Of a stretch of 64,000 bases of DNA, positions 1,871 to 39,784 are shown in pieces. The DNA comes from an uncultured Candidatus Saccharibacteria bacterium (GTDB taxonomy: Bacteria > Patescibacteriota > Minisyncoccia > Phycocordibacterales > Phycocordibacteraceae). Position 1 is the stretch's first letter; the number at the start of each line of letters is the position of its first letter. A model generated the notes under the pieces. It worked only from the letters and a program-made list of their open reading frames with translations, was not told the DNA's origin and searched no databases. A program made the position numbers and the translations under genes. Where the stretch lies: the NCBI GenBank assembly GCA_964357395.1, contig CAYHLC010000001.1:55599-119598 (forward strand). The letters are read 5' to 3'.

Positions 1871-1883
1871 TGCAAAAGCTTCT

Positions 1884-1976: not shown

Positions 1977-1977
1977 C

Positions 1978-3475: not shown

Positions 3476-3478
3476 TCC

Positions 3479-5269: not shown

Positions 5270-5658
5270 CAGACGCACAAAAAGACCTAGTACTCCTCGT
5301 AGACGATGATGCGTTCCTCCTCGACATGTACGCCATGAAGTTTAAGCAATGCGGATTGCTGGTTGATGCGGTGTCGAACCCGGTTGCGGCGCTCGATAAG
5401 CTGCGCGCAGGCCTCGTGCCAGGCGTCATTCTCCTCGATGTCATCATGCCAGGCCTGAATGGTTTCGAGTTCTTGGAGATAGTACGGAAGGAAGGGCTTG
5501 CCAAAGAGGCGAAAGTCATCATGCTCTCGAACCAGGGCCAGCAAGAGGATATTGATAAGGCAACCGCGCTCGGCGCGGACGGCTACATCATTAAGGCGAG
5601 TGCGATCCCGTCTGAAGTCTGCGACAAGGCGCTCGCAATCATTGGTACTAAGAAATAA
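5266..5658 (+). CDS. Single-domain response regulator (CheY-like receiver) embedded between pilB and pilT
   Basis: 130 aa. LLVDDDAFLLDMY ... LLDVIMPGLNGFE ... VIMLSNQ ... GADGYIIK receiver motifs (acidic pocket, phospho-Asp, conserved Lys). ATGA overlap with pilB. Confidence 0.8.
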   Translation: MTDAQKDLVLLVDDDAFLLDMYAMKFKQCGLLVDAVSNPVAALDKLRAGLVPGVILLDVIMPGLNGFEFLEIVRKEGLAKEAKVIMLSNQGQQEDIDKATALGADGYIIKASAIPSEVCDKALAIIGTKK

Positions 5659-5659
5659 C

Positions 5660-6727: not shown

Positions 6728-6728
6728 C

Positions 6729-7937: not shown

Positions 7938-8003
7938 GGCTACAATAAGTAGGACCCACAAGGTCCTTAGCCTAGCTACTTATTAATAATTCGATATTAC
8001 ATT

Positions 8004-8459
8004 ATGAAGTCATTCCGAGGTTTTACGCTCATCGAGCTCCTCGTCGTTATCGCCATCATCGGCATCCTTTCGTCGATCGTCTTGGCATCACTTAATACCG
8101 CCCGCTTGAAGAGTCGTGACGCACGTCGCGTTGCTGACATCAAGCAGGTGCAGCTTGCGCTCCAGCTCTACTACGACGCCAACAGCGCGTATCCAGCTGC
8201 GCTCTCATCACTCGCACCGACCTATATCGCGACTATCCCTCGCGATCCGGTTGACCCAACCAACAACCCGTATCCGTATGACCAGCTGACGACTGGCTCG
8301 TCGTACCACATAGGTGCGAACCTCGAGGACTCGGCTAACGCAGCATTGCAGTCTGACCTCGATACGGCTGCCGATACCGGTACTGTTGACTCGGGGCTCG
8401 ATGCAGCAGGTTGCACGACCGGTGTGACCACGAGGTACTGTTACGACGTAGGTCCCTAA
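8004..8459 (+). CDS. pilA: Type IV major pilin, copy 1 (prepilin with class III signal)
   Basis: 151 aa. MKSFRG|FTLIELLVVIAIIGILSSIVL with Glu at +5. C-terminal Cys pair (GCTTGVTTRYC). Confidence 0.8.
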   Translation: MKSFRGFTLIELLVVIAIIGILSSIVLASLNTARLKSRDARRVADIKQVQLALQLYYDANSAYPAALSSLAPTYIATIPRDPVDPTNNPYPYDQLTTGSSYHIGANLEDSANAALQSDLDTAADTGTVDSGLDAAGCTTGVTTRYCYDVGP

Positions 8460-8920
8460 TCAACTATATGAAACTAAGAGGCTTTACCCTTATTGAGCTT
8501 TTGGTGGTGATTGCCATCATCGGTATTCTCTCCTCCATCGTGCTCGCGTCGCTGAACTCCGCCAGGCTGAAGAGTCGTGATGCACGTCGCGTTGCTGACA
8601 TCAAGCAGGTGCAGCTTGCGCTCCAGCTCTACTACGACGCCAACAGCGCGTATCCAGCTGCGCTCTCATCACTCGCACCGACCTATATCGCGACTATCCC
8701 TCGCGATCCGGTTGACCCAACCAACAACCCGTATCCGTATGACCAGCTGACGACTGGCTCGTCGTACCACATAGGTGCGAACCTCGAGGACTCGGCTAAC
8801 GCAGCATTGCAGTCTGACCTCGATACGGCTGCCGATACCGGTACTGTTGACTCGGGGCTCGATGCAGCAGGTTGCACGACCGGTGTGACCACGAGGTACT
8901 GTTACGACGTCGGCCCTTAG
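8108..8920 (+). repeat. Tandem direct repeat: about 350 nt of near-identical DNA (8108-8459 and 8569-8920) forming the 3' three-quarters of both pilin genes
   Basis: The two copies differ only at gac/gat near the start and at 3 synonymous sites plus the stop codon at the end. The preceding ~105 nt of each gene differ at many synonymous positions. Confidence 0.85.
8468..8920 (+). CDS. pilA: Type IV major pilin, copy 2 (tandem paralog)
   Basis: 150 aa starting MKLRG|FTLIELLVVIAIIGILSSIVL. From residue ~33 the protein is identical to copy 1. The annotated ORF 8411..8920 carries a spurious N-terminal extension. Confidence 0.8.
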   Translation: MKLRGFTLIELLVVIAIIGILSSIVLASLNSARLKSRDARRVADIKQVQLALQLYYDANSAYPAALSSLAPTYIATIPRDPVDPTNNPYPYDQLTTGSSYHIGANLEDSANAALQSDLDTAADTGTVDSGLDAAGCTTGVTTRYCYDVGP

Positions 8921-8931
8921 CTACGGGGGGC

Positions 8932-9765
8932 ATGGACCTTGTACTAGCTATCTTTTTTGGAGCTCTCGGCGCATGCGTCGGGAGCTTCTTAAATGTTGTG
9001 GTACTGCGCTTTGGTTTTGGAGAGCGGCCGAATGCTCGCTCGGAGTGTGCCGGATGCGGCACGCAGCTCCACGCCTCAGACCTGGTACCCATTTTTTCGT
9101 ACCTCTTTCTCGGAGGCAGGTGCCGCTCGTGCGGCAGTGGACTGAATCCCCAATATCCGCTGATCGAGTTCTGCACAGCACTCCTTTTTGCGCTGACGTA
9201 CCTTGGCTTGTTGCCCGCAAGTCTATTTGAGATAGGGGAGTTCCTGGCACTCCTCGGCTTTTGGTCTGCATTTATGGCGCTTGTTGCGTACGACATACGC
9301 CACACGCTAATCCCGCTCCCGTTTATCTACGCACTCTTCGGATTTGCAGGACTTATGGCAGGTGTACGCGCACTTGCAGATGTATCCCTCGAGCCTCTTG
9401 GTTACGCACTCCTCGGCGCACTTGTTTGTGGAGGGTTCTTCGCACTGATCCACGTCGTTACCAACGGGAAGGGGATGGGAATTGGAGACGCGTATGTCGC
9501 AGCTGCTATTGGGGCTGCCTTTGGTGTAGGACAGGGAGTAGCAGCAAGTATTCTTGGGGTGTGGATTGGAGCGTTGGTAGGCGTTGTCGCACTCCTCATT
9601 GGGCGGCTTTTTCCTCACGCGGCGGTCACCCTCTATGGACGGCGGGTTACACTGTCTACAGAGATCCCGTTCGCACCATTCCTCATGATCGGTGCCGTGG
9701 TCGCTACACTATGCCACGTGGATTTTCTCTCATCGAACTTCTTGTTGTTGTCGGGATTTTTATAG
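8932..9765 (+). CDS. pilD: Prepilin peptidase PilD (A24 family aspartic peptidase / N-methyltransferase)
   Basis: 277 aa from MDLVLAIFFGALG. N-terminal CxxC...CxxC zinc motif (CAGCG...CRSCGS). Multiple TM helices. GIGDAYV-type second catalytic Asp region. Confidence 0.85.
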   Translation: MDLVLAIFFGALGACVGSFLNVVVLRFGFGERPNARSECAGCGTQLHASDLVPIFSYLFLGGRCRSCGSGLNPQYPLIEFCTALLFALTYLGLLPASLFEIGEFLALLGFWSAFMALVAYDIRHTLIPLPFIYALFGFAGLMAGVRALADVSLEPLGYALLGALVCGGFFALIHVVTNGKGMGIGDAYVAAAIGAAFGVGQGVAASILGVWIGALVGVVALLIGRLFPHAAVTLYGRRVTLSTEIPFAPFLMIGAVVATLCHVDFLSSNFLLLSGFL

Positions 9766-10268
9766 TGATCACGTCGGTGATTCTTGCAAACCACTCGCGC
9801 TTTTATAGCTCGGTCCTCCTTGGGAATGCCGCCTACGATATCGCGCTCTCGGTGCGTGGTGCGCAGGTGTATGGCCTGTCGACCCAGTCGACCGGAGGCA
9901 GCTTTAATGTGGGATACGGCATCCACTTTACGACGGGGGCTAACACCTACCTCCTCTTTGCAGACAACGACCGCGATCATATCTATGACAATCCGGGTGA
10001 CACTATTCTCAAGACGTATGGCTTTCAGCGTGGGTACCAGATACAGAAATTCTGCGGCGTCCAATCGAACGGGAGCGAGCACTGCTCGAACACGGGGGAT
10101 ATCCCCTTCCTCGATGTCGCATTCCTCCGTCCTAATCCTGATGCATGGATCTTGAGCTCCACCGGTATTACCTACTCGCAGATAAAGGTGACAATCCGCT
10201 CAGGTTCTGATGAGACGCGCACCGTATCTGTGCAGTCGACCGGACAGATAACCGTATCCAATCCATGA
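9711..10268 (+). CDS. Minor pilin / pseudopilin 1
   Basis: 185 aa from MPRG|FSLIELLVVVGIFIV (Glu +5). The start lies 55 nt inside the 3' end of pilD in another frame. The annotated ORF 9261..10268 carries an upstream non-coding extension. Confidence 0.65.
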   Translation: MPRGFSLIELLVVVGIFIVITSVILANHSRFYSSVLLGNAAYDIALSVRGAQVYGLSTQSTGGSFNVGYGIHFTTGANTYLLFADNDRDHIYDNPGDTILKTYGFQRGYQIQKFCGVQSNGSEHCSNTGDIPFLDVAFLRPNPDAWILSSTGITYSQIKVTIRSGSDETRTVSVQSTGQITVSNP

Positions 10269-10837
10269 GAGGCTTTACACTCATAGAGCTTATGGTCGCA
10301 GTGTCGATCTTCGCTATCGTTATGATGGTTGGTGTGGGAGCCCTCCTCACCATGGTTTCGGTAAACAAGCGCGCGCAGGGTATCAACTCGGTGATGAACA
10401 ACCTCAACGCAGCCGTAGAGCAGATAGCCCGCGCGACACGTGTGGGCTCTGCCTATCACTGCGCAGCATCGCCGAACGACTTCAGTAACATTTCCGTACC
10501 GGCAGATTGTGCGGTCAATGGGGGACTACTGTTCGCCTTTGAGGCGACGAACGGAAACGTACTCGATACCAACGATCAGGTAGTGTACCGCCTCAATGGC
10601 ACGCAGCTCGAGCGCTCGCTCCGCTCAGGCATAAACGGAACATGGGTGGCGCTCACCTCACCGGAGGTACATATCACCTCATTTAAGTTTTATGTCACTG
10701 GTTCGACACCGCTTACGAGCGGCGATTCGGTGCAGCCGAGGCTCCTCATGATCATCCATGGCACTGCAGAGTTGCAGGGAGGCCCAACTGACTTCGTGGT
10801 GCAGTCGTCCGTAACACAACGCCTCATCGACCTATGA
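10265..10837 (+). CDS. Minor pilin / pseudopilin 2
   Basis: 190 aa. MRG|FTLIELMVAVSIFAIVMM with Glu +5. ATGA coupling to neighbours. Confidence 0.7.
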   Translation: MRGFTLIELMVAVSIFAIVMMVGVGALLTMVSVNKRAQGINSVMNNLNAAVEQIARATRVGSAYHCAASPNDFSNISVPADCAVNGGLLFAFEATNGNVLDTNDQVVYRLNGTQLERSLRSGINGTWVALTSPEVHITSFKFYVTGSTPLTSGDSVQPRLLMIIHGTAELQGGPTDFVVQSSVTQRLIDL

Positions 10838-11331
10838 ACAAAACACTTTCAGCATTTACCTTGCTAGAAACATTGGTCGCCGTGGCGGTACTGCTTATGT
10901 CGCTCCTTGGCCCGTTTAGTATTGCGCAGCAGTCTCTGAAGAGCGCGTACTATGCGCGCGACCAAGTGACTGCGTACTACCTGGCGCAAGAGGGGCTCGA
11001 GTTTGTGCGTGCTATTCGGGATCAGAACTACCTATCAGGCTCGTCGTGGCTCACTGGTATTAGCACGTGTACCGCAGTGCAGTGCACTGTCGACATGCCG
11101 AACTTTGTCTATGCAACCTGCTCGGGCCCGTGTACAGCGCTCAAGGTGTCTGCTGTTGGAGGCCTCTTCAACCAAGCAAACGGGACTCCGTCTAAGTTCG
11201 TACGCAGTGTATCCCTAATGAACGTTGCTGGGGATCCGAATCAGGTTATTGTTACGGTGACCGTCTCCTGGATCTCTGCCGGCATCTCTCGTACCTTCTC
11301 TCTACAGGAACGTCTCTTTAATTGGCTATGA
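10834..11331 (+). CDS. Pilin-like protein 3 (Ala at -1 of the putative cleavage site)
   Basis: 165 aa. MNKTLSA|FTLLETLVAVAVLL with Glu +5 but Ala instead of Gly at -1. Confidence 0.55.
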   Translation: MNKTLSAFTLLETLVAVAVLLMSLLGPFSIAQQSLKSAYYARDQVTAYYLAQEGLEFVRAIRDQNYLSGSSWLTGISTCTAVQCTVDMPNFVYATCSGPCTALKVSAVGGLFNQANGTPSKFVRSVSLMNVAGDPNQVIVTVTVSWISAGISRTFSLQERLFNWL

Positions 11332-11780
11332 TCAAAACTCCTCGCGGCTTCACCCTACTTATGTCAGTCGTTATCTCGGGAGTCTTGTTGACGCTCGGCT
11401 ATGAGATATACAACCTCGCCGTGAAGGAGGTAGAGCTCTCCTCCTCCGGTCGCGAGTCGCAGTTTGCGTTCTACTCTGCTGATACCGGCATTGAGTGTGC
11501 GCTCTACCTCGACACCAAGCAAGACGCGTTTGCGACCACATCTGCACTTACCCAAGTTACGTGCGGCACGGCGGTATCACCACTCACACGCACCACGGTC
11601 GGTACTGATTACATCACCACCTTCGCCTTCTCACTCGGAGGGGGGATCAACACGCAGTGCGTGGACGTACGCGTCACGAGGCAGAACCCACAGAAAACTA
11701 TCATCGAGTCCTACGGCCACAACACGTGCGTCCTTACCAACCCGCGCCGGCTGGAGCGCGCCATCCGCGTCACCTACTAA
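11322..11780 (+). CDS. Pilin-like protein 4 (no Glu +5; GspK/PilX-like class)
   Basis: 152 aa. MAMIKTPRG|FTLLMSVVISGVLL. Confidence 0.6.
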   Translation: MAMIKTPRGFTLLMSVVISGVLLTLGYEIYNLAVKEVELSSSGRESQFAFYSADTGIECALYLDTKQDAFATTSALTQVTCGTAVSPLTRTTVGTDYITTFAFSLGGGINTQCVDVRVTRQNPQKTIIESYGHNTCVLTNPRRLERAIRVTY

Positions 11781-14022: not shown

Positions 14023-14313
14023 ATGTCAGTCTCGTCAGATGATGTTAAAAAGCTAGCGGAATTGTCGCGGCTCGCACTCACCCCCGAGGAGATAGAAAAG
14101 ATGCGCAGCGAGATCGAGGCCATCTTGGCCTACGTTGAGGCGATACAGAAGGTACCCCTACCAGAGGGCATCGCACAGTCCCCACACCTTGACTTACAGA
14201 ACGTGATGCGCCCCGACGGCGAGCCGCACGAGGGTGGTATCTATACCGATGCTATGGTCAAGCAGATGCCAGATAAGGTTGGTAATGCTCTGAAGACAAA
14301 GAAGATACTATGA
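14023..14313 (+). CDS. gatC: Asp-tRNA(Asn)/Glu-tRNA(Gln) amidotransferase subunit C
   Basis: 96 aa. LSRLALTPEEIEKM...LAYVEAIQKV is typical of GatC. Coupled to gatA. Confidence 0.8.
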   Translation: MSVSSDDVKKLAELSRLALTPEEIEKMRSEIEAILAYVEAIQKVPLPEGIAQSPHLDLQNVMRPDGEPHEGGIYTDAMVKQMPDKVGNALKTKKIL

Positions 14314-15719
14314 GCGATCTCACTAACCTCACTGCAGAAGAACTCGCCGCGGGCTATCGCGCTAAACAATTTACTGCTACCGAAGTAACTGACGCGCACC
14401 TTGCTCGTATCGAAGCTGGCAACAAAGATCTGAATATCTATCTCGAGGTGTATGACGATGCGCAAGCGATGGCCAAGAAGGCTGACACGGCACTCGCTTC
14501 GGGCAGTGCACACGCTCTAACCGGAGTACCGATCGCTATTAAGGACAACATCATGGTGAAGGGCAAGATCGCGAGCGCCGGATCGAACATGCTCCGCAAC
14601 CACACTGCGGTGTATGACGCGACCTGCATTACTCGTCTCAAGGATGCTGGTGCAGTGTTCCTTGGCAGGGTAAACATGGACGAGTTCGCGATGGGGACCT
14701 CGACAGAGCACTCGGCATACGGACCAACACGAAACCCAGTAGACCCGACACGTGTCCCTGGCGGAACGTCAGGAGGATCCGCAGCAGCAGTAGCTGCAAA
14801 CATGGCCCCGATCGCGCTCGGCACCGACACCGGCGGCTCGGTGCGTCAACCATCTGCACTTTGTGGTGTATACGGCTTCAAGCCAACCTACGGTGGGATA
14901 TCTCGCTACGGACTTGTTGCTATGGGCTCGTCACTCGACCAGCTTGGTATCGTTGCTCGCAACGTGTCTGACATCGAAACGACGTATAAGGTAGTAAGCG
15001 GTATCGATGTGATGGATGGAACAACACTGCCCGAGGCACCAACACCCACAACAAACAAGCGCATTGCCGTTCCGCGCGCCTTTATCAAAGACGCACAGCC
15101 GGATGTAGTTAAGGAGTTCGAGCGGGGGTTGGAGGTGATGGCAAAGGCGGGGTACGAAATAGTCGACGTCGAACTTCCAGTTGCGCCGCACGCGCTCGCT
15201 GCCTACTACATCATTATGCCAGCGGAGCTCTCGACCAACCTAGCGCGCTTCGACGGTATGCGGTACGGCCTCCACAAAGAGGGTGCCAAGCTTCTTGATG
15301 ACTACAAGCTCTCGCGCGCAGCAGGATTCGGGGCAGAAGCTCGTAGACGAATCATCCTCGGTACATACGTCCTCTCGGCCGGCTACTACGATGCGTACTA
15401 CAAGCGGGCGTGCGCTCTCCGGAGCGAGTTGGTACACGAGTTTGATGGTGTGTTTAAGGACGCGTCGTTCATCGCAACACCAACAGCACCAGGACCAGCG
15501 TTCAAGATAGGGGAGAAGCTGGACCCACTCTCCCTCTATCTCGAAGACATCTTCACTGTCTCTGCCAACCTCGCGGGTATACCTGCTATATCGGTCCCTT
15601 GCGGAACAGTGGAGCGGGAGGGGAAGAGCCTTCCGGTCGGGATACAATTCATGAGCCCCAAGCGTACGGAAAGTGCGTTGTTCAGGGTCGCCCGCGATGT
15701 CACTACCGATCATCAGTAA
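14310..15719 (+). CDS. gatA: Glutamyl-tRNA(Gln) amidotransferase subunit A (amidase signature)
   Basis: 469 aa. Amidase signature GGSSGGSAAAVA-like (GGTSGGSAAAVAA) and KDN catalytic region. Confidence 0.95.
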   Translation: MSDLTNLTAEELAAGYRAKQFTATEVTDAHLARIEAGNKDLNIYLEVYDDAQAMAKKADTALASGSAHALTGVPIAIKDNIMVKGKIASAGSNMLRNHTAVYDATCITRLKDAGAVFLGRVNMDEFAMGTSTEHSAYGPTRNPVDPTRVPGGTSGGSAAAVAANMAPIALGTDTGGSVRQPSALCGVYGFKPTYGGISRYGLVAMGSSLDQLGIVARNVSDIETTYKVVSGIDVMDGTTLPEAPTPTTNKRIAVPRAFIKDAQPDVVKEFERGLEVMAKAGYEIVDVELPVAPHALAAYYIIMPAELSTNLARFDGMRYGLHKEGAKLLDDYKLSRAAGFGAEARRRIILGTYVLSAGYYDAYYKRACALRSELVHEFDGVFKDASFIATPTAPGPAFKIGEKLDPLSLYLEDIFTVSANLAGIPAISVPCGTVEREGKSLPVGIQFMSPKRTESALFRVARDVTTDHQ

Positions 15720-26867: not shown

Positions 26868-26896
26868 TTGGCAAATAAGGGTCTTTCGGCTATACT
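26868..26896 (+). promoter_or_regulatory. Sigma70-type promoter of rplY with a near-leaderless start
   Basis: TTGGCA (26868-26873), 17-nt spacer, TATACT (26891-26896). ATG at 26906 lies only ~3 nt past the predicted start. Confidence 0.4.
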
Positions 26897-26905
26897 CGGG
26901 GAACT

Positions 26906-27577
26906 ATGGCAGCTATGGCCCTGAAGGCAGCAAAGCGCACTACCCTCGGAAAGGGGGTCTCTGAGCTGCGCGCTGGCGGGGATATGCCAGCAGTAGTCTA
27001 TGGCCCAAAGCAGGAGTCGCTCTCTATTACGGTCAACCAGCGTGAGTTTGAGAAGGTCTTCAAGACTGCAGGCGAGTCGACCGTCGTGACGCTCAACGTC
27101 GATGGCGACGAGATCAACACCCTGATACACGAAGTAGACTTCGACCCCGTGAGGAGCACCGCACGACACGCAGACTTCTTCGCAATTGTTAAGGGCCAGA
27201 AGGTGCAGGTCATGATCCCACTCGAGTTCGTCGGCGAGTCTGCAGCAGTGAAGGCGGGTGCGAACCTTGTTAAGACGCTGTACGAAATTGAGGTTGAGGC
27301 AGATCCGATGAATCTTCCACACAATTTCGAAATAGACATCTCGGTACTCGCCGAGGTTGGAGCGCAGATAACGGCAGGGGATATCAAGATTCCTACCGGC
27401 GTTGAACTGGTTACCAATCCTGAAGACGTTGTGGCGCTCACGGCGGAAGCCAAGGAGGAGGAGCTCGATACACCTGTTGTTGGTCCAGACATGGAGGCTA
27501 TCGGCGACTCTGAGAAGCGTGGTAAGTCTGAGGAAGAGACTGTTGCTGAGGGTGGCGAGGAAGCCAAGGCCGAATAA
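26906..27577 (+). CDS. rplY: Ribosomal protein L25 / general stress protein Ctc (long form)
   Basis: 223 aa. N-terminal L25 beta-barrel (LKAAKRTTLGKG...PAVVYGP). C-terminal acidic Ctc-type extension. Confidence 0.85.
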   Translation: MAAMALKAAKRTTLGKGVSELRAGGDMPAVVYGPKQESLSITVNQREFEKVFKTAGESTVVTLNVDGDEINTLIHEVDFDPVRSTARHADFFAIVKGQKVQVMIPLEFVGESAAVKAGANLVKTLYEIEVEADPMNLPHNFEIDISVLAEVGAQITAGDIKIPTGVELVTNPEDVVALTAEAKEEELDTPVVGPDMEAIGDSEKRGKSEEETVAEGGEEAKAE

Positions 27578-29013: not shown

Positions 29014-29721
29014 ATGCAGCGCTGCGGCGGTGCTACCATTCAGGTAATGCCGCCTAATGTCCAGCCGCAGGTACCAACGCCTGTGCCCGCATCCAAAAGC
29101 GGACTTCTAGTTGTTTTCTTATTAATCGTTACACTTCTTGTTGGAGGAGGGTATTTGGGTAGTTTGATAGGTATTTTCTCTCCGGTTCATGGGTCAGTGT
29201 CAGTTTTGGTTCGAGGAACAGACGATACACGTTCCGTGCAGTATCTGAACCTCGCCTCCGGGGTTCACGAAGTGCGCACCGATATCAATGCCTCGGAGTT
29301 CGCAGCCGAGAATATTAAGATTTTTGCACTCAGCGATGGTACCTATATTACGCTTTCGTCGGCGGGCATTGTCCGCAAGAACGATACCGATGGCTCGGAG
29401 AGCCTCCTTGTGGCTACACCAGTTGCACCTGTTATGGCACGAACCCCACTTGCAGTGTGGGGGGATGGCCTCCGCATCGCGTGGGTCAATCCGGCCGATC
29501 ACTCATTGCAGGTATTCGCCAAAAACGCACGTGGCGCGTACCTACCGATCTTTGCGTCAGGTAATGTAATTGCAAACTCAGTCTTGTTTACTGAGGCAGG
29601 GGACACGGTAGTCCTGACCCGTATCGCGAACGACGAGACAGAGGTATTTGCTATCGACCTCGCATCGGGACAGATGACGAGGGTTAAAACTATGCAAGGA
29701 TTTGCAACACTTTTGCCATGA
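29014..29721 (+). CDS. Membrane-anchored PD40/TolB-like beta-propeller repeat protein, paralog 1
   Basis: 235 aa. N-terminal TM (LLVVFLLIVTLLVGGGYL). The repeat LRIAWVNPADHSLQVF is shared with the paralog at 31914. Confidence 0.5.
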   Translation: MQRCGGATIQVMPPNVQPQVPTPVPASKSGLLVVFLLIVTLLVGGGYLGSLIGIFSPVHGSVSVLVRGTDDTRSVQYLNLASGVHEVRTDINASEFAAENIKIFALSDGTYITLSSAGIVRKNDTDGSESLLVATPVAPVMARTPLAVWGDGLRIAWVNPADHSLQVFAKNARGAYLPIFASGNVIANSVLFTEAGDTVVLTRIANDETEVFAIDLASGQMTRVKTMQGFATLLP

Positions 29722-31910
29722 AAAAAACTCTCTACTCGCTCATAGCTCTCACAATAGCTGGCGCAAGTATCTTTGGAGTGTCGAGCATGACCGAAGCGCA
29801 GTACACGGTGCCCGGATTTACACTCACGAACGACTCGACTTGTGTGGGTGGCACCATGATCCTCCAGTACGGAGACGTACAGGACACTGGTGCTGGAATA
29901 GCGGCAAAGGCACTCGCGGTGCAGGATTGCCAGTACTACATGACCGGCCCAAATCAGTGCTGCTCGGTCAAGTACCGTAGAGCCACACCAGCGCCCCCTG
30001 CTATTGGCTCGCACGTGTTTCAATACGAGGTCTATCAGGGTGGGGTAGTGGGACCTTCAACTCCTCCTCCTGACACCGCGACTAGCCTCTATCAGCACTG
30101 GGCTGGCGTTTCTAGTCCTGCTAACTCGTGTATGGGGACGTGGCAGCTTGCCTCGACCGATATGTCTGATGTTGCGTGTACCGGGTCAGGTGGCGTATGC
30201 GTACCAAATGCGAACAATACAAATATCTATTCCGCACTCGCTACCTGCCCAAGCGCCAACCCAGACGGAGTTGCATGCAAGGTGGGAGACCCAGTCCTCC
30301 TACGGGGTGTGAAGGGGCCACTCACCTACGGCACCAGCTGTAAGTGGAATTCGGTAGAGCCCGGCAGCAATATCATTACGACGAATGTCTACAACTGTGT
30401 GGGCGCAAGCGGATCGATAGTCAGCACAAGTTGTGATCTGCCCGCGGCGCAGGTGACCGCAGACCTAGTAGCAAATCCAAATTCGATTGAGCTCGGCGAG
30501 CAGTCGCTCCTCACGTGGACCTCAACTGGAGCAACGTCCTGTACGAGCTCCGACTTTACTGTAACGAACAGCGCAACGCAGGGCTCTACCCCGGTAGCGC
30601 CAACTGCAACCAAGACCTACACCGTCACCTGTACGGGTGCAGGGGGGAGTGCGGACGCAAGCGCGACGGTCAGCGTTTCCACACCAGGGACTGAGCCTGA
30701 GCTTGCAGCAACGTGCCGCGTGCACCCAACGAGTGCAAGGACAGGCGAGACGGTGTTGTGGTCTTCAACGGTGACTGGTCCGCAGGGCTTGTACGCATAC
30801 TCGTGGAGCGGAAGCGAGAACCTAAGCGGTGTTGCGAACCAGGTATTTAAGACCTACGCGTCGACAGGACAGAAGACTGCGTCGCTTACCGTGACCTACA
30901 CCCCACCTGCACCTGTAGAAAGCAGTGGCGCAGAAAGTTCTTCAGTGGCGCCATCAACGACATCACCAACCACACCACCCACAGCCCCTACAACACCGGC
31001 GCTCGGTGATGGTCTGTTGGATACTGCGTGCACAACACTAGGCTGGACTACGCCAATTACGGCCTGCGCTGGTAGCTGGTCACCGACCTATAGTTCCGCT
31101 GGATGCCAGAACGGCTGGCAGTGCACCAGTACTATGCCTACGGACGGCGGCGGTGGCGGTACACTCCCCGCCGAGGACACGTCATTCCTCGACTCGTTGC
31201 AGGAGCTACTCAGGTTCGAATCATCACAGATCAACGAGATCCCAGAGATCCAAACAGTAGACGGTTCGGTGCTCGCAGCATCCGTTGGCCCGCAGACTAT
31301 TACAGTCCAGTGCGAGAACGCAGCGAACATTACAACGCCACCTGTGTATCAGTGTTCAGACGGAATCGATAACGATGATGATGGCCTTGCAGACGAAGAC
31401 GATCCAGGCTGCTACGTCGGCGGCACTCCTGGCGGCCAGCCAGGCGGTCCCGGCGGCGGTACCTACAATTCCGGCGGCGGGAGCGAGGGGACGACCCCGA
31501 ACCAATGCACTACCGGACTCTTCTGCAAAGGTACGGATGTATACTCACGGAACGCGCAGTGTGTCGAGTCCTTTGTTAAGAGTTGCCCATTCGGATGCCT
31601 TAATGGTGAGTGTATCGACGGCCCCGCAGAGGAGCCAGACCTAACGCTAAACGCAACTCCGCCGCTCATCAAGAAGGGTCAGTCCTGCACACTTGCAGTA
31701 AGTGCTCGCAGCGTGACGAGCTGCTCCTTAACTGGCAGTGGCGTGTCAGTTACGTTCCCCGCTACTGGTGGCATTGTTGCAGCAACAACAGTTATCACCC
31801 CATCCCTCACCGTGACGAGTCCGTACAAGCTTACGTGTACCGGTACTAACGGAGCAACATTGTCGAAGACGGTTGAGTGCAAGATCGCACCGTCGTTTGA
31901 GGAGTTCTGA
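29718..31910 (+). CDS. Giant secreted Cys-rich protein, paralog 1, with PKD-like repeats, a DxDxDG Ca-binding-like motif and a C-terminal APSFEEF tail
   Basis: 730 aa. Signal peptide MKKTLYSLIALTIAGASIFGV. Repeats such as ADLVANPNSIELGEQSLLTWTSTGATSCTSS and YSWSGSENLSGVANQVFKTY...LTVT (PKD-like). Contains CSDGIDNDDDGLADEDDPGC. Ends KIAPSFEEF. Confidence 0.6.
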   Translation: MKKTLYSLIALTIAGASIFGVSSMTEAQYTVPGFTLTNDSTCVGGTMILQYGDVQDTGAGIAAKALAVQDCQYYMTGPNQCCSVKYRRATPAPPAIGSHVFQYEVYQGGVVGPSTPPPDTATSLYQHWAGVSSPANSCMGTWQLASTDMSDVACTGSGGVCVPNANNTNIYSALATCPSANPDGVACKVGDPVLLRGVKGPLTYGTSCKWNSVEPGSNIITTNVYNCVGASGSIVSTSCDLPAAQVTADLVANPNSIELGEQSLLTWTSTGATSCTSSDFTVTNSATQGSTPVAPTATKTYTVTCTGAGGSADASATVSVSTPGTEPELAATCRVHPTSARTGETVLWSSTVTGPQGLYAYSWSGSENLSGVANQVFKTYASTGQKTASLTVTYTPPAPVESSGAESSSVAPSTTSPTTPPTAPTTPALGDGLLDTACTTLGWTTPITACAGSWSPTYSSAGCQNGWQCTSTMPTDGGGGGTLPAEDTSFLDSLQELLRFESSQINEIPEIQTVDGSVLAASVGPQTITVQCENAANITTPPVYQCSDGIDNDDDGLADEDDPGCYVGGTPGGQPGGPGGGTYNSGGGSEGTTPNQCTTGLFCKGTDVYSRNAQCVESFVKSCPFGCLNGECIDGPAEEPDLTLNATPPLIKKGQSCTLAVSARSVTSCSLTGSGVSVTFPATGGIVAATTVITPSLTVTSPYKLTCTGTNGATLSKTVECKIAPSFEEF

Positions 31911-31913
31911 TCC

Positions 31914-32819
31914 ATGGTTGATTTGGTCAAACAGTTCCGCTCTGTGCCTGTCATGCGGGTGTTGTTGCCCGGTGTCGCCGTGGTAGGAATTGCGGCTTTG
32001 CTCGTGTGGTATATCACCGATGACCCACTGCGTGGAGTGGTATATGTGACGGTGACGGACGGGCTCTCGCACGCTGCGACCATAACACTCCCTGAGCTTT
32101 CAACAACCACACTGCAGGTTGCAGACGCAGCTCTCTTGGCGCAGATACCAAGTCCCGACGGGGACTCTACTGCGTCGCTCACCGTTTCCTTGGAGGAGGG
32201 GAGAGGGATTGTGGTCAGTACAAGCGGTGCGTCGCGCACGGTGGTGCTCCACGGTACCATCCCCACTCCTCCCGCCTGGGCGCATGACTCCAGTACTTTT
32301 GCATTTGCAGTGTTGCCCGCTGAGTCTGAGGGGGATACTGGCAATCCTGCTACCTGGCAGGTGGTGCGTGCGGTTGCAAACGGAGACTCGTTAGTTCTGG
32401 GTCACGGATTCCGACCGATGCCCGCCTTTGATGATCGTGTGTACGCACTGACTGAGCGCGGCATCGAGCTGTTGGACTTTGGCAAAGTGGGCGAGATTGT
32501 GGTTGCGAGCGCGGCGCCCGTCCACACAGCGACTCCATTTGCCGCTTCGCCTGATGGCACACAGGTGGCGTGGGTTAATCCTGCTGATCGCTCGCTACAA
32601 GTCTTCGAGCACACTAACGGTTTTTTTGTACCACTTCTCTTCCTGCCCGGGGTGTCGCCGCATTCTATTGTCTTCTCACCGGACGGCATGTACCTGCTTG
32701 TGGCATTCCAAACAGAGACAGAAACACGCCTTTCCCGCATACGCATAGATGGCGGTAGCACCGATGCGGTAGGTGTATTGCAAGGTGGTGTGGCACTTCA
32801 TGCATGGCATTATGAATAA
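31914..32819 (+). CDS. Membrane-anchored PD40/TolB-like repeat protein, paralog 2
   Basis: 301 aa. N-terminal TM. SPDGTQVAWVNPADRSLQVF and FSPDGMYLL PD40-type repeats. Confidence 0.5.
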   Translation: MVDLVKQFRSVPVMRVLLPGVAVVGIAALLVWYITDDPLRGVVYVTVTDGLSHAATITLPELSTTTLQVADAALLAQIPSPDGDSTASLTVSLEEGRGIVVSTSGASRTVVLHGTIPTPPAWAHDSSTFAFAVLPAESEGDTGNPATWQVVRAVANGDSLVLGHGFRPMPAFDDRVYALTERGIELLDFGKVGEIVVASAAPVHTATPFAASPDGTQVAWVNPADRSLQVFEHTNGFFVPLLFLPGVSPHSIVFSPDGMYLLVAFQTETETRLSRIRIDGGSTDAVGVLQGGVALHAWHYE

Positions 32820-35124
32820 GATACACTCTGCACTTGCTGCACTTGTTATCGCGGTAGCACTCGTGTCGGTGGCGCACGCCTACACCACCACGGTCTATAA
32901 CGCGCAATGGTGTACCGGGGGCACGTTGGCCGGCACGGCACTGATACAGCCGACCAACAGTTGCGTATCATTTTGTGCGGGACTCTCGGCGACCTGCTGC
33001 ACTACCAAGCAGGTCTTGGAGCTGAATACGGGCGAGGTCACCTACGACTGCTCCGCCTACCTCAACACCACCACTCATGCCGCAAAGTCGAACCAGACGA
33101 TTAACTGTGGTGGCGAGCCGTGTATCCGCAACTCGTGGACTGCAACAGTCATAAACTATTCGGGGACGCCAGTGACCGCTGATATCGTTGCCAACCCTGG
33201 CACTATTACGACCGGGCAGTCGTCACTACTGACCTGGTCATCGACCGGGGCTACGAGCTGCACGGGCACTAACTTCTCAACCGGAGGGGCGGTGTCGGGA
33301 TCAATAAGTGTGGCGCCGGCAAGCGATACGCTCTATACGGTCACCTGTCAAAACGCGAGCACATCTGCAAACGACACGGTGTGGGTGTACCGACAAAATT
33401 TTAATGTATCTTGCACCGTTAACACTGGCACGGGTGGCGGGTACGGTATGGTCGGCACCCCAGTCACGTGGACCGCAGCACCACTCTATGGCCCTGGCGC
33501 CTACACGTACTCGTGGAGCGGGACGGACTCGCTCTCGGGATCAACCAATGCGGTACAAAAGACGTACACGACCAGCGGTCAGAAAGAGGCTACGGTAACT
33601 GTGACCTCGGGTGGCCTCAGCATCAGCACCGAGTGCATCTATAACAACTGCACCGCTTCGACGTGCCAATCCTCGGGCATCAACGTGATTTCCGGGGAGG
33701 GTGTAGACATTGCTGGTGGTATCCCGAGTATTAATTCCGGAAGCCTCGTGTCGGGCGGCACGCTGACGTTCTCGGGGCAGATCCAGAGTATTGGAACTGG
33801 AAGCATAGATGAGTATTTCCAAAACCGCTTCCAGGTAGATATTGGGAATGATGGTACGTACAACACCAACCTCGATATACTTGGGAGTACTGTTAGCTAT
33901 CCTAAGTATAACGCCACACAGATGTGCTCGGGCGGTACTCTCGTATATGAGGGGTCTGATGTGCAGGACACAGGAAACCTTAGCGATCCTGTCGGGCTTG
34001 CGCAGTTAAATTGTTCGAACGGCGGTGGCGCGGGGCCCGGATTGCAGTCTGGACAGTGCTGTCAGACAAACTTTCGTCATGAGAGTTGCGCGCCACCCAC
34101 TATCTGTTACTACTACTTTGACTGGAAGGTGTACAACAACGCTACTCTCGTTCCAGAGACCACCTCAGTTACGTGCCCAGCGAACTACAACTGCAGAGCA
34201 GGAACGATGGTTACTGCTACCGGCGTGCACTACACCATCCCGCTCGGCTCCAACGTGTCGGTGACCTCGCCATCGTGGACCAATATCCCACCCGGCACCC
34301 ACTCGGTGCGGCTCTGCGTGGACCAACCATCGCTCTCGCTCACTGAGACAAACGAGACCAACAACTGCGGCACGGCATACGTCTTTACGGTAGGTGGACC
34401 AGACTTTACCGCAAGCCAGCCGAACTTGAATTCGGGCTCACTGATAGCAGGTCAGCAACTTACGTTCTACGGGACTGTTACGAACGCGGGGACCCTGTCC
34501 CACACCGGCACCATCCCGAACCGCTTCCAGATCGACCTCAGTAACAACGGGTCGTGGGATACCAACCTCGACGCGTCCATCACTGACCTAGCTGTAGGCC
34601 AAACCAAGCAGCCTATCTCGCCAACATGGACCGCAACTTCTGGAACTCACGCGGTACGACTCTGCGCAGATACTCCTGCCAGTATTACAGAGAGTAACGA
34701 GTCCAACAATTGTGGATCGTCCTTCGTTATTACTGTTTCGGCGCCAACCCAGTGTCAGGACGGAGTCGATAACAACGGCAACGGACTCATTGACACCGCT
34801 GACCCAGCCTGCTCGAGTGGGGGAGATACATCAGAGGAGCTCCATGCTGTTGCAACGCTTGTTATGACCCCAAGCAAAACTACTGTGAAGACTGGTACCA
34901 CCACAACCCTTGTCTGGAGCGTAACAGAAGTCGTTACGAACTCCTGCAAGATCACCTCGAACGTTGGAGACTTGTGGAACCTGACTGGAACCTCGGGTAG
35001 CCAGGTCACCAGCCCAATAACCCAAGAGACGGTATACACCCTGACCTGTACCTCTATGAAGACAGGTGGCCCAGTTAGCACCACAACCAGAGTTCGACTC
35101 GCCCCATTCTTCGAGGAGATCTAG
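32812..35124 (+). CDS. Giant secreted Cys-rich protein, paralog 2, with PKD-like repeats, a DxDxNG Ca-binding-like motif and a C-terminal APFFEEI tail
   Basis: About 770 aa from MNKIHSALAALVIAVALVSVAHA. Repeats TADIVANPGTITTGQSSLLTWSSTGATSCTGT and YSWSGTDSLSGSTNAVQKTY...VTVT. Contains CQDGVDNNGNGLIDTADPAC. Ends RLAPFFEEI. The annotated ORF begins at 32773 inside the previous gene. Confidence 0.6.
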   Translation: MNKIHSALAALVIAVALVSVAHAYTTTVYNAQWCTGGTLAGTALIQPTNSCVSFCAGLSATCCTTKQVLELNTGEVTYDCSAYLNTTTHAAKSNQTINCGGEPCIRNSWTATVINYSGTPVTADIVANPGTITTGQSSLLTWSSTGATSCTGTNFSTGGAVSGSISVAPASDTLYTVTCQNASTSANDTVWVYRQNFNVSCTVNTGTGGGYGMVGTPVTWTAAPLYGPGAYTYSWSGTDSLSGSTNAVQKTYTTSGQKEATVTVTSGGLSISTECIYNNCTASTCQSSGINVISGEGVDIAGGIPSINSGSLVSGGTLTFSGQIQSIGTGSIDEYFQNRFQVDIGNDGTYNTNLDILGSTVSYPKYNATQMCSGGTLVYEGSDVQDTGNLSDPVGLAQLNCSNGGGAGPGLQSGQCCQTNFRHESCAPPTICYYYFDWKVYNNATLVPETTSVTCPANYNCRAGTMVTATGVHYTIPLGSNVSVTSPSWTNIPPGTHSVRLCVDQPSLSLTETNETNNCGTAYVFTVGGPDFTASQPNLNSGSLIAGQQLTFYGTVTNAGTLSHTGTIPNRFQIDLSNNGSWDTNLDASITDLAVGQTKQPISPTWTATSGTHAVRLCADTPASITESNESNNCGSSFVITVSAPTQCQDGVDNNGNGLIDTADPACSSGGDTSEELHAVATLVMTPSKTTVKTGTTTTLVWSVTEVVTNSCKITSNVGDLWNLTGTSGSQVTSPITQETVYTLTCTSMKTGGPVSTTTRVRLAPFFEEI

Positions 35125-35169: not shown

Positions 35170-35430
35170 ATGAAGCAGGGAGTACACCCGACCAATTACC
35201 GACCCGTCATCTTTGAGGACGCCTCAGCTGGGGTGAGCTTTCTTATCGGTTCGACCGTAGAGACCAAGTCCAAGGGGAAGTGGGATGGCAAGGAGTACGA
35301 TCTTGTTCAGGTAGAGATTAGCTCTGCGTCGCATCCGTTCTATACCGGAAAGAAGACCACTATTGACCGTGCTGGCCGCGTAGAGCGCTTTAAGGTCCGC
35401 GCATCTAAGGCGGGGGCTAAAAAGAAGTAA
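35170..35430 (+). CDS. rpmE: Ribosomal protein L31
   Basis: 86 aa from [17 protein letters not shown], ending near RFKVRA. The annotated ORF 35143..35430 has a 9-aa spurious extension. Confidence 0.85.
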
Positions 35431-35439
35431 CGACACCTC

Positions 35440-35472
35440 AGACCTCTACTATAATGGTAGAGGTCTTTTTTA
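35440..35472 (+). terminator. Rho-independent terminator after rpmE whose loop is TATAATG
   Basis: agacctctac-tataatg-gtagaggtct, then ttttttat. The prfA ATG at 35474 follows immediately. Confidence 0.65.
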
Positions 35473-37779: not shown

Positions 37780-38139
37780 ATGCTGACGGCGACATTCATT
37801 CTTATTACCGCGGCGGTACTCCTTGGAGCTTTTGTTACATTCCGCATCGTCGAGCATAAGCGCGGCGTTCGCCTCTTTGAGGTATCGCGAGCCGCGCTCG
37901 ATGTGCATGCGCTCATACTATGGAATGATCTTGTAACTGGTGGCGTGCCGCTCAAGTGGCGCCATTCGGCTAAGGTAATCGCGCACCAGGCAACACACGG
38001 TGGGTTGCAGAGCCTGGTCATACTGCTCCGCGCTGCAGAGCGTCCGCTCGCACGACTGTCATACAAGCTTCGTGTGTCAGCCCCAAAAGCCGGTGGCAGG
38101 GAGGTATCTCAGTATCTCAAGACCATCACCCCCGAGTAG
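37780..38139 (+). CDS. Hypothetical membrane-anchored protein
   Basis: 119 aa. N-terminal TM helix. No family motif. Confidence 0.3.
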   Translation: MLTATFILITAAVLLGAFVTFRIVEHKRGVRLFEVSRAALDVHALILWNDLVTGGVPLKWRHSAKVIAHQATHGGLQSLVILLRAAERPLARLSYKLRVSAPKAGGREVSQYLKTITPE

Positions 38140-38143
38140 TAGT

Positions 38144-38219
38144 GCCGCCTTAGCTCAGTTGGTAGAGCAACACTTTTGTAAAGTGAAGGTCCTCGGTTCG
38201 AATCCGAGAGGCGGCTCCA
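38144..38219 (+). tRNA. tRNA-Thr (anticodon UGU), CCA encoded
   Basis: Cloverleaf: acceptor GCCGCCT/AGGCGGC, D-arm GCTC-AGTTGGTA-GAGC, anticodon arm ACACT-TTTGTAA-AGTGA (U33, UGU, A37), T-arm CTCGG-TTCGAAT-CCGAG, discriminator U, then CCA. Confidence 0.8.
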
Positions 38220-38221
38220 AA

Positions 38222-39784
38222 ATGAAACACATTCCGAGCCACCCCTATCTCCACGTTAGTCGCGCGTCCGATCTGGCGGGATGGGACCGCACGCTCTACC
38301 GGTTTTTGGAATGCTTGCCAGCGGTGCTCTCGATCGGGACGCTTACTGGCCTCTCTGCACTCGCGTTCTTCGCGCCCACTGCCGCAGCCTACTTCACCAT
38401 ACTCTTTTCGGGATACTGGCTCTTCAAGACCATCTTCCTCTCCGCACACCTGCACCATAACTTTAAGCGATTGCGACATAACATGCAGGTCAACTGGCAG
38501 GAGCGACTACAGAACTTTAAGTATGACGACGTTGTGCATGTAGTGATCTTTCCGTTTTATAAAGAGCCGTACGAAGTCTTGCGCGCCTCCGTGCGCGCTG
38601 TCGTAGAGTCGAAGTATGATGGGAAGAAGATCGCGGTCGTCCTCGCGGCCGAGGCGCGCGCAGGACTCGATGCAAGAAGCATGGCCGAGCGCATACAGTC
38701 CGAGTTTAGGGGGGTCCTCCTCGATTGCATTGTTACAGTCCACCCATCGGACACGCCAGGCGATATGGCTGGAAAGGGATCGAACATCGCCTACGCAGCA
38801 GAAGAGGCGAGGGAGCGCATATTGGATGCGCGGAACCTCCCGTACGCACGCACGCTCGTGTCAGCATTCGACGTAGACACCATCGTGTATCCGCACTACT
38901 TCAGCTGCCTCACGTGGCACTTCCAGACCGCGGAGCGGCCGAGCCGAGTATCGTTCCAGCCAGTCCCGCTCTACAACAACAACATCTGGGAGGCGCCCGT
39001 ACTCTCTCGCGTCCTTGCGTACTCCTCGACCTATTGGCAGATGATCCAACAGGAACGCCCAGAACGTCTCTCAACTTTCTCCTCACACGCAGTGCCCATG
39101 GATGCCCTCGTCGAGGCGGGGTACTGGCAGCGCAACATGGTGTCGGAGGATTCGCGCATCTTCTGGAATCTGTTTGTTCGCTTTGATGGCGACTATTCAG
39201 TAATACCCCTGTCGTATCCAGTTTCGATGGATGCCAACGTCGCCGGCACGACCTGGGGCACGGTTAAGAATTTGTACAAACAGCACCGCCGCTGGTCCTA
39301 CGGCGCGGAAAATATTCCGTACATGATTTTTAACTTTATAAAAAATCCGCGCATTCCGCTCCGCAAAAAACTCTTCAACATCAGCACGCAACTCGAGGGG
39401 TTCTGGTCCTTGGTCACACATCCCATCATTTTGTTTGCGGTTGGATGGTTCCCGCTCATCGTGGGTGGGCACGCATTCAATGACACCGTGCTCTCTTACA
39501 ACCTCCCGATCGTCGCACAGTGGTTTCTTACTCTTGCGATGTTCGGACTCGTCACCTGCTCAGCGTACTTTATGTTTCTGATACCCCAGCGCCCAGGTGT
39601 CTACACATGGCGGCAGAGTATCCTTATGGCCTTGCAGTGGGCCTTGGTACCACTTACTATGGTCGCGTTCAGCTCTCTCCCTGGTCTTGAGGCTCAGGTC
39701 CGTCTCGCGACTGGCCGCTATCTCGGCTTTTGGGTTACTCCTAAGGAGAGAGTTCTGAAGTCCCGCAAGACACAATCAGCATGA
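38222..39784 (+). CDS. Integral membrane glycosyltransferase (GT2-like)
   Basis: 520 aa from MKHIPSHPY, starting 2 nt after the tRNA. N-terminal TMs, then a GT-A-like core (VVIFPFYKEPYEVLRASVRAV...KIAVVLAAE ... FDVDTIV, a DxD-like motif) and C-terminal TMs. The annotated ORF 38000.. overlaps the tRNA and is trimmed. Confidence 0.6.
   Translation: MKHIPSHPYLHVSRASDLAGWDRTLYRFLECLPAVLSIGTLTGLSALAFFAPTAAAYFTILFSGYWLFKTIFLSAHLHHNFKRLRHNMQVNWQERLQNFKYDDVVHVVIFPFYKEPYEVLRASVRAVVESKYDGKKIAVVLAAEARAGLDARSMAERIQSEFRGVLLDCIVTVHPSDTPGDMAGKGSNIAYAAEEARERILDARNLPYARTLVSAFDVDTIVYPHYFSCLTWHFQTAERPSRVSFQPVPLYNNNIWEAPVLSRVLAYSSTYWQMIQQERPERLSTFSSHAVPMDALVEAGYWQRNMVSEDSRIFWNLFVRFDGDYSVIPLSYPVSMDANVAGTTWGTVKNLYKQHRRWSYGAENIPYMIFNFIKNPRIPLRKKLFNISTQLEGFWSLVTHPIILFAVGWFPLIVGGHAFNDTVLSYNLPIVAQWFLTLAMFGLVTCSAYFMFLIPQRPGVYTWRQSILMALQWALVPLTMVAFSSLPGLEAQVRLATGRYLGFWVTPKERVLKSRKTQSA

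Follow-up and report, generated by a model that had tools for sequence, protein, structure and literature searches.

A strictly C-terminal P-x-F-x-E-[F/I] tail on exported Ig-type proteins paired with membrane-anchored propellers in Patescibacteria

Introduction

In the type IX secretion system (T9SS), a C-terminal domain (CTD) of ~80–90 amino acids (aa) with a beta-sandwich fold acts as a portable targeting module on diverse exported proteins. In the cohesin-dockerin and SlaA/SlaB systems, a secreted protein is held non-covalently by an anchored partner, which is often encoded adjacently. Short peptides and free C-termini can also be read by repeat scaffolds. The extracytoplasmic beta-propeller TolB binds short disordered peptides (Pal, the colicin TolB-box), the Kelch propeller of KLHDC2 recognizes C-terminal degrons, and the carboxylate clamp of tetratricopeptide repeat (TPR) proteins reads EEVD-COOH. 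Sorting signals of the LPXTG, PEP-CTERM, PGF-CTERM and GlyGly-CTERM types consist of a motif, a transmembrane (TM) helix and a basic cluster, and are cleaved by a dedicated enzyme (PMC3237569; bioRxiv 10.1101/2023.06.07.544157). Here we describe a locus in a stretch of 64,000 nucleotides from contig CAYHLC010000001.1 (hereafter the window), in which two gene pairs encode anciently duplicated surface modules. Each module comprises a membrane-anchored, TolB-like propeller protein (S1 or S2) and an exported, Cys-rich protein (G1 or G2) that ends in the tail P-x-F-x-E-[F/I]. The same terminal module is present on many exported proteins of Paceibacteria-type Patescibacteria, where it is combined with differing passenger domains.

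Patescibacteria are thought to live attached to host cells. The literature still describes as unclear how these members of the candidate phyla radiation assemble their envelope (PMC5220378). An initial annotation, made from the letters of the window alone, had suggested an episymbiotic or ultra-small cell. This agrees with the identity of G1 to a hypothetical protein in a metagenome-assembled genome (MAG) labelled 'Patescibacteria group bacterium', in which the product of the next gene is identical to S2.

Results and discussion

The duplicated S and G proteins

The open reading frame (ORF) list gives four co-directional ORFs, S1, G1, S2 and G2, with the borders drawn in the initial annotation (Table 1). 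Its proposal of two paralogous gene pairs, each a two-gene module, is borne out by significant alignments for both the small and the large proteins. S1 and S2 align over 98 aa (E=1e-14) within their C-terminal ~100 aa, a region that spans the shared AWVNPAD[HR]SLQVF sequence. G1 and G2 align over 149 aa (E=4e-25), which include an Ig-like unit with LLTW[ST]STGATSCT and a YSWSG unit. Shorter stretches of the two also align, namely a Cys-rich domain (E=3e-6), the acidic Cys loop (E=2e-6) and, together with its tail, the C-terminal domain (E=0.002). The duplication is ancient rather than recent, since both pair types are carried by all close relatives (those in which the neighbouring transglycosylase is 69–75% identical). 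In these relatives the tails come in two flavours that follow the pair type, CK[IV]AP[ST]F[EQ]E[FI] and V[RK]LAP[KR][FY]EE[IR].

The small proteins had been described as PD40/TolB-like with an N-terminal TM segment and a common WVNPAD[HR]SLQVF repeat, and both the S1/S2 alignment and a structural model of S2 agree with this description. The AlphaFold2 (AF2) model of S2 has one TM helix followed by an all-beta ectodomain, with a mean confidence (pLDDT) of 66 that rises to 75–92 in the C-terminal half. Its best matches in the PDB are TolB propellers (Foldseek, E ~1e-9, TM-scores 0.57–0.60), and a profile of the S family matches WD40 chains (E=3.6e-11) as well as TolB chains (E 3e-5 to 9e-4). S2 therefore qualifies as a beta-propeller by its fold, and S1 is counted with it only through homology to S2. 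Neither protein matches a Pfam family at E≤1, so the gathering threshold of PD40 (PF07676) is not reached. Their homologues P0083 and P0084 carry a precomputed PF07676 match, and P0083 is named 'PD40 domain-containing protein' at NCBI. S1 and S2 are not TolB proper, as they score 13.3 and 10.8 bits with the NCBIfam model TIGR02800 against a cutoff of 343, and no tol or pal genes are found in their neighbourhood in the window. The close family of S2 is rare, with five matches in 5.8 billion proteins. When membership is defined by single-linkage BLAST and an iterated hidden Markov model, the S family also takes in ~300-aa single-pass proteins whose genes precede tail genes in other lineages, and it then has 40 members in the loci collected here.

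The large proteins had been called giant; at 730 and 770 aa they are mid-sized, and orthologues reach 1,503 aa. Their portrayal as exported, Cys-rich, Ig-type proteins stands. Read from the sequence, both N-termini are positively charged and hydrophobic with a small-x-small site, as expected for Sec-type signal peptides. The profile of the terminal domain detects two copies of an Ig-like unit per protein, one internal and one terminal. A CARDB domain in G2, without a counterpart in G1, is the sole Pfam domain above threshold in either protein. The PKD units of the initial annotation fared less evenly. 'PKD-like' is a fair term for the YSWSG unit, since several G homologues pass the PKD threshold, but in Pfam G2 itself remains below it (PKD_4, 16 bits versus 27) and G1 gives no match. 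The acidic loops, CSDGIDNDDDGLADEDDPGC in G1 and CQDGVDNNGNGLIDTADPAC in G2, had been likened to thrombospondin type 3 repeats. No Pfam TSP_3 match exists at E≤1, and the loops instead match NCBIfam NF033662, the acidic double-disulfide repeat, with scores that fall under the whole-protein cutoff of 41 because each protein has a single copy. Many homologues have an element of this type ahead of the terminal domain. No match for G1 was returned when solved structures were searched by sequence, and the model of its terminal domain has a generic Ig-like fold whose best PDB matches are SoxY/Z and KIR domains (E ~4e-3).

A conserved motif at the extreme C-terminus

The sequences KIAPSFEEF (G1) and RLAPFFEEI (G2) are the last residues of the two proteins. 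The initial annotation had proposed that this tail is conserved, and it is indeed enriched in homologues. Among 79 proteins found with G1, 34 have P-x-[hydrophobic, mostly F]-x-E-[F/I] as their very last residues, and none of these 34 has a second copy elsewhere. In a wider count of 1,200 ORFs (≥150 aa) from related loci, most of which were fetched via other genes but eleven (L001–L011) via tail proteins, P-x-hydrophobic-x-E-x stands at the end of 42 ORFs, whereas 1.05 are expected from the internal rate of the motif (Poisson p ~1e-51). At the DNA level, a degenerate pattern for VN..P.F.EF-stop matched 61 metagenome contigs, of which ~42 are clear family members, and gave zero matches among viral contigs. 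For 78 non-redundant tails, chosen by a pattern that fixes Pro at position -6, Glu at -2 and a hydrophobic residue at -4, the residue at -4 is Phe in 65 and the last residue is Phe or Ile in 67, with a preference for Val-Asn at -10/-9. Looser tails that occur beside S-like genes (…PAFREQ, …SDQIEF, …SGSGEF, …APRYEER) retain the Glu at -2.

We considered whether the tail is simply part of the generic Ig domain and reject this, because the motif is strictly terminal and few of the top matches to the Ig profile carry it. The terminal-domain profile matched 12,511 cluster representatives from many bacteria, mostly long tandem-repeat proteins. The best matches in these proteins usually end at about position 79–82 of 86, and among 149 newly listed top matches only ~6 have the tail. 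Whether the motif sits inside a known domain had been set beforehand as a test of the initial annotation, and the top Ig-repeat matches, mostly tail-free, place it outside. In an AF2 model of the last 88 aa of G1, the final strand comprises residues 72–81 and the tail is coil with a pLDDT of ~79. In P0018, L110 and L139 the tail follows a different, PKD-like last domain.

Neither Pfam nor NCBIfam has a match at the C-terminus of G1 or G2 at E≤1, and no TM helix follows the motif, in keeping with the view that it is not a known sorting tag. A search with a profile of the final 62 residues, taken from an alignment of 56 sequences, involved 201 candidates and gave one irrelevant match. In the literature that we searched, there is no description of the tail motif, the S/G module or the NF033662 repeat.

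Five tandem Ig-repeat proteins (P0131, P0181, P0192, P0196 and P0213) have another near-terminal motif, formed by a Cys, a few residues, [WY]-x-E-V and two final residues, as in ...KACKIPTNWIEVNP and ...NECRNLNWREVSF. In other lineages, this ending may represent a related C-terminal signature.

Export and passengers of tail proteins

An N-terminal hydrophobic segment is present in 85 of 92 non-redundant full-length tail proteins (~92%) versus 372 of 1,307 other ORFs (28%), and several of the seven carriers that lack one have visible signal peptides or mis-called starts. Passengers on tail proteins include CARDB, PKD, TSP_1 (thrombospondin type 1), an InlB B-repeat, a Tyr/Gly-rich repeat, and a subtilase with a lactonase-type propeller. 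The last of these is a 977-aa protein (L112 950–3883, minus strand) in which Peptidase_S8 (E=6e-40) and a 7-bladed lactonase-type propeller precede the terminal Ig domain, so the tail is not confined to adhesin-like proteins. Such a range of exported passengers is the behaviour of portable targeting modules. In the Tyr/Gly-rich carrier (L099 11631–12782, minus strand), the signal peptide and the Ig domains are separated by ~170 aa of GYY[YAQE] repeats.

Gene neighbourhoods in related genomes

Via the transglycosylase protein encoded next to S1, we fetched 80 loci from Paceibacteria-type genomes (Kaiser-, Adler-, Nomura-, Zambryski- and Parcubacteria). The default gene order is rplY-SLT-rpmE-prfA, where SLT denotes the lytic transglycosylase gene. 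The gap between SLT and rpmE is under 75 bp in 35 loci. In ~20 loci it spans 1.5–9 kb and contains a single unit or two of them, in most cases an S-like gene and, after it, a large gene for a protein with Glu at -2. In five more loci, a tail gene is found either immediately before rplY or in the interval from rplY to SLT. The pairs of the window are thus kept as neighbours in related genomes. Roughly half of those metagenome tail genes that have downstream sequence, all chosen by the tail only, lie directly upstream of rpmE/prfA. The variable slot between SLT and rpmE, within a putative ribosomal-protein transcription unit, offers a useful marker for surface-protein turnover between related genomes.

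When an S-like gene has a downstream gene, that gene encodes a Glu(-2) protein in 31 of 35 cases, at a distance of at most 10 bp or overlapping, and the exceptions lie mostly at contig ends. Viewed from the tail, the upstream neighbour is an S-like propeller for 24 of 66 full-length tail genes, against a share of S-like genes of ~1% of ORFs. The co-occurrence of tail and PD40 neighbour that the initial annotation had named as a check is therefore strong in one direction and partial in the other, and the two fractions suggest that S exists for tail proteins, whereas tail proteins need no adjacent S. For four of the 66 tail genes, the upstream neighbour is instead a TM-anchored TPR protein (Pfam TPR_1/2/8/17), and these proteins are a second class of peptide-binding scaffold in the position of the propeller. 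At least eight others follow a gene for another small membrane protein. A third kind of upstream neighbour, single-pass proteins of ~100–135 aa with Ser/Thr-rich tails and repeated 'L[DE]SLT[SA]'-like motifs, was seen at L100 (1390–1725), L123, L136 and L140 (1636–1971).

Two of the SLT-rpmE gaps have another layout (L008 2565–6637 and L078 4248–8377), in which the gene for a ~460-aa exported protein precedes and overlaps that for a tail-less ~900-aa protein and a ~225-aa tail protein follows. Beside the tail-gene locus of L009, a pair resembling a diversity-generating retroelement (bAvd and the reverse transcriptase RVT_1) and a 614-aa protein are encoded between prfA and rpsB (14216–15580).

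Proposed function of the tail and its alternatives

We propose that the tail is a docking or retention motif read as a free C-terminus, with the neighbouring, co-translated propeller as its putative membrane anchor. This is plausible, if somewhat short of an even chance. In this model, G would be released to the extracytoplasmic space after cleavage of its signal peptide, and the tail (Phe at -4, Glu at -2, the hydrophobic last residue and its alpha-carboxylate) would then bind a membrane-anchored repeat scaffold, so that G would be held at the cell surface without a covalent link. The scaffold in the window would be the co-translated S1 for G1 and S2 for G2, and in other genomes this part would fall to a TPR protein with a membrane anchor or to a different small membrane protein. 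Such a model fits the known handling of short peptides and free C-termini by propellers and TPR proteins. In its broader form, P-x-F-x-E-[F/I]-COOH would be an undescribed surface-anchoring signal of Paceibacteria-type genomes that docks, after Sec export, in receptors of the propeller or TPR type encoded upstream, a generalization that we offer only tentatively. The initial annotation had also raised a role in export itself, a reading made unlikely by the ordinary Sec-type signal peptides at the N-termini of G1 and G2.

Several observations weigh against docking on the neighbouring protein. The S proteins are barely alignable, with almost no conserved residues past generic PD40 features, whereas the tail is nearly invariant, and conservation so much lower than that of the tail argues against S as a universal reader. 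Tails are alike whether the neighbour is S, a TPR protein or nothing, more than half of the tail genes have no S-like or TPR neighbour, and in L006, L009, L014, L044 and L066 the tail gene directly follows the transglycosylase gene. Confidence in the S2 model is only moderate, and the pLDDT of the tail leaves room for packing on its own domain. The calls of signal peptides and TM helices come from the sequence and not from a dedicated predictor, and some counts are inflated because some loci were chosen via G1 homologues. A nearly invariant tail that looks alike with any partner fits one conserved reader encoded elsewhere better than S, and the idea of S as the universal tail receptor is weakened. 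The tail might thus be a retention or sorting motif for a single non-neighbouring factor, such as a cell-wall component, machinery of the transglycosylase locus, the type IV pilus or a PDZ-type protein, while S or TPR proteins bind the variable body of G or act as co-receptors or assembly factors. The frequent position of unbiased metagenome tail genes before rpmE/prfA, whatever the partner, is in line with this, as is P0018 (tail PTFIEI), whose gene follows four pilin-like genes and a prepilin peptidase gene. However, no candidate for a universal reader turned up, the transglycosylase gene is also present in the many genomes with a tail-free locus (the 35 loci with a short SLT-rpmE gap), and the near-obligate order of S before tail, with overlapping or abutting codons, is left to explain. 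We regard such a separate reader as a serious contender, somewhat less likely than docking on the neighbour.

Explanations without a receptor are less probable. The tail could be a structural cap, a stabilizing extension of the last Ig-like domain that covers, for example, an exposed beta-edge, has no role in sorting and is conserved only because terminal domains require it. The confidence of the tail model is intermediate, which differs from that of disorder, and the same kind of beta-sandwich precedes the tail in most carriers. Yet the end of the protein always lies exactly one residue past the Glu, as if the free carboxylate were being recognized, thousands of other proteins with the same domain family end without a tail, and in P0018 and the L110 and L139 proteins the tail is borne by a different, PKD-like last domain; the strong link to export and to membrane-anchored neighbours would also go unexplained, and we judge a cap improbable. 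Even less probable is a processing site, at which a peptidase or transpeptidase would cleave the tail or attach the C-terminus by a covalent bond to the wall or a different subunit, in the manner of a sortase but without a membrane-spanning signal. The start of the tail ([VIL]-P-x-F) loosely resembles LPXTG-type motifs and the conserved upstream neighbour is a cell-wall enzyme, but a TM helix or basic segment that would keep the substrate membrane-bound is absent, sortase-type genes were not seen in the conserved neighbourhood, and neither an energy source nor an acyl-enzyme candidate was found. Finally, conservation could act on the nucleotides if the Glu codons formed the Shine-Dalgarno sequence of the next gene. 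At the end of G1, TTT GAG GAG TTC TGA does place GAGGAG 9–14 nt upstream of the S2 ATG (window 31896–31916). The same tail ends G2, however, where the rpmE start lies ~50 nt past the GAGGAG codons; most tails, among them PAFQEF, PKFVEF and PAFREQ, lack GAGGAG, spacers of 40–80 nt follow many tail genes, and the conserved Pro and Phe would have no explanation. As the cause of the tail this constraint has next to no probability and is effectively refuted, holding at the G1/S2 junction only.

Whatever reads it, the tail is a simple sequence handle for listing likely surface proteins, which here are exported, fast-evolving, Cys-rich Ig proteins and at least one protease, and the recurrent pairing with propeller or TPR proteins gives a concrete receptor hypothesis. 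If docking of the tail on a membrane-anchored scaffold is true, it would represent a class of C-terminal signals that target proteins to the surface and work without a membrane-spanning segment or a processing enzyme, and it could serve as a tag for surface display or pull-down in hard-to-culture bacteria. Such a non-covalent, enzyme-free display system would then define much of the unknown surface proteome of these ultra-small bacteria.

Organization of the locus

The module lies between rplY and rpmE, after a lytic transglycosylase gene, as the initial annotation had placed it, and prfA, rpsB and tsf follow downstream of rpmE (Table 1). Its coupled genes were also read correctly: S1 and G1 overlap in ATGA, G1 and S2 are 3 nt apart, and S2 and G2 overlap by 8 nt. 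The mechanically called ORF of G2 begins at a GTG (32773), and the ATG at 32812 gives the 770-aa protein. At the G1/S2 junction, the reading frame of G1 continues past the TGA stop and one TCC codon into the ATG of S2. For rpmE, the ATG at 35170 is likely to be the true start.

The transglycosylase scores 28.4 bits with Pfam SLT_2 (cutoff 24.3) and has 586 relatives in genome contigs. Residues E281-S282 are invariant within a QESDLG block in six orthologues and form what we take to be the catalytic Glu-Ser motif of a family-1 lytic transglycosylase. The SLT domain match and the conserved Glu-Ser together assign the protein to this family.

A single transcription unit that includes rplY, the transglycosylase gene, both S/G pairs and rpmE is plausible, because a promoter-like site and a terminator-like hairpin bracket this region; the overlapping or abutting start and stop codons of the S and G genes also count toward an operon. 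If the S/G genes are transcribed together with these three neighbours, as appears to be the case, this would point to expression that is high and constitutive.

Table 1. Coordinates of the features of the S/G locus (window positions unless a locus is named)
Feature	Position	Strand	Basis or remark
Sigma-70-like promoter match	26868..26896	+	TTGGCA-17-TATACT, 10/12, consensus match only; upstream of rplY, possible transcription-unit start
rplY (ribosomal protein L25/Ctc)	26906..27577	+	Upstream border; orthologues in related loci match Pfam Ribosomal_L25p
Exported coiled-coil and lytic transglycosylase (SLT) protein, 456 aa	27618..28988	+	Conserved upstream neighbour; SLT_2
S1, 235 aa, single-pass membrane protein, PD40/TolB-like beta-repeat ectodomain	29014..29721	+	Hydrophobic segment ~aa 31–53; homology to S2
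G1, 730 aa, exported Cys-rich (32 Cys) multi-domain protein	29718..31910	+	Signal peptide aa 1–26
G1 internal Ig-like repeat domain, aa 250–320	30465..30677	+	Profile A1, i-E 1.5e-11
G1 acidic double-disulfide repeat, aa 542–565	31341..31412	+	NF033662, E=7.7e-9, 35.1 bits, cutoff 41
G1 terminal Ig-like beta-sandwich, aa 643–724	31644..31889	+	i-E 8e-32; AF2 pLDDT 92.6, 7 strands
G1 tail P-S-F-E-E-F	31890..31907	+	Followed by stop TGA 31908–31910
S2, 301 aa, single-pass membrane protein, TolB-like beta-propeller ectodomain	31914..32819	+	Helix aa 14–34; AF2, Foldseek, profile
G2, 770 aa, exported Cys-rich (30 Cys) multi-domain protein	32812..35124	+	Signal peptide aa 1–23
G2 internal Ig-like repeat domain, aa 125–192	33184..33387	+	Profile, i-E 6e-9
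G2 CARDB domain, aa 530–634	34399..34713	+	PF07705, 39.3 bits, cutoff 22.7
G2 acidic double-disulfide repeat, aa 646–669	34747..34818	+	NF033662, E=4.8e-6, 26.2 bits, below cutoff
G2 terminal Ig-like domain, aa 683–764	34858..35103	+	Profile, i-E 1.6e-21
G2 tail P-F-F-E-E-I	35104..35121	+	Followed by stop TAG 35122–35124
rpmE (ribosomal protein L31)	35170..35430	+	Downstream border; orthologues match Pfam Ribosomal_L31
Intrinsic-terminator-like hairpin, 12-bp stem and T run	35440..35466	+	Just 3' of rpmE
TM-anchored TPR genes before a tail gene	L064 13693–14826; L119 611–1528; L129 (290 aa); L150 6058–6780		

Other features of the window were seen at some distance from the locus. A type IV pilus cluster (758–11780) encodes PilM, a PilN-like protein, PilB-type and PilT-type ATPases, PilC (T2SSF) and pilins according to Pfam. 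Its pilin-like genes have N-terminal methylation motifs, and ligA, gatC and gatA come after the cluster. A pilin-like ORF beside the major pilin (8411–8920) repeats the N-terminal FTLIELLVVIAIIGIL and the last ten residues of that protein. In L010, the gene for the 1,066-aa tail protein P0018 is located exactly between the pilin-like genes and ligA, a slot that is empty in the window. A tRNA-Thr gene (anticodon TGT, 38144–38219) lies inside a mechanically called 594-aa ORF (38000–39784), whose real gene probably starts after the tRNA.

Comparison with known systems

The tail resembles the tripartite sorting signals (LPXTG/sortase, PEP-CTERM/exosortase, PGF-CTERM/archaeosortase, GlyGly-CTERM/rhombosortase and MYXO-CTERM) in being a short C-terminal motif on many exported proteins with varied passenger domains within one lineage. 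It differs from them in that G1 and G2 stop one residue past the conserved Glu and have no TM helix. No NCBIfam sorting-domain model matches G1 or G2 at E≤1, and no sortase, exosortase or rhombosortase was seen in the conserved neighbourhoods of tail loci. Likewise, the 7-strand Ig-like sandwich that ends the G proteins on varied cargo recalls the CTD of the T9SS. Here, however, the distinctive element is a tail of six residues and not the domain, no CTD model of NCBIfam matches, and the T9SS serves export across the outer membrane of diderm Bacteroidota.

Among propellers, the similarity to TolB of the Tol-Pal system lies in the superposition of the S2 model and in the matches of the S profile described above. 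In place of the signal peptide and alpha/beta N-domain of TolB, the S proteins have an N-terminal TM helix. Their partner is a large Ig-domain protein, and no Tol-Pal genes are nearby. The lineage of this bacterium is generally regarded as having no outer membrane. With cohesin-dockerin and SlaA/SlaB, the locus shares a two-component display logic only, with no relation in sequence or fold, and the proposed docking element is a free C-terminus of six residues in place of a folded dockerin or a coiled-coil stalk. A further possible parallel, for which no homology is claimed, comes from cytosolic, eukaryotic systems, in which TPR clamps and the Kelch and WD40 readers of degrons are repeat scaffolds that recognize an acidic or hydrophobic extreme C-terminus together with its carboxylate, much as we propose for the membrane-anchored scaffolds encoded beside tail genes.

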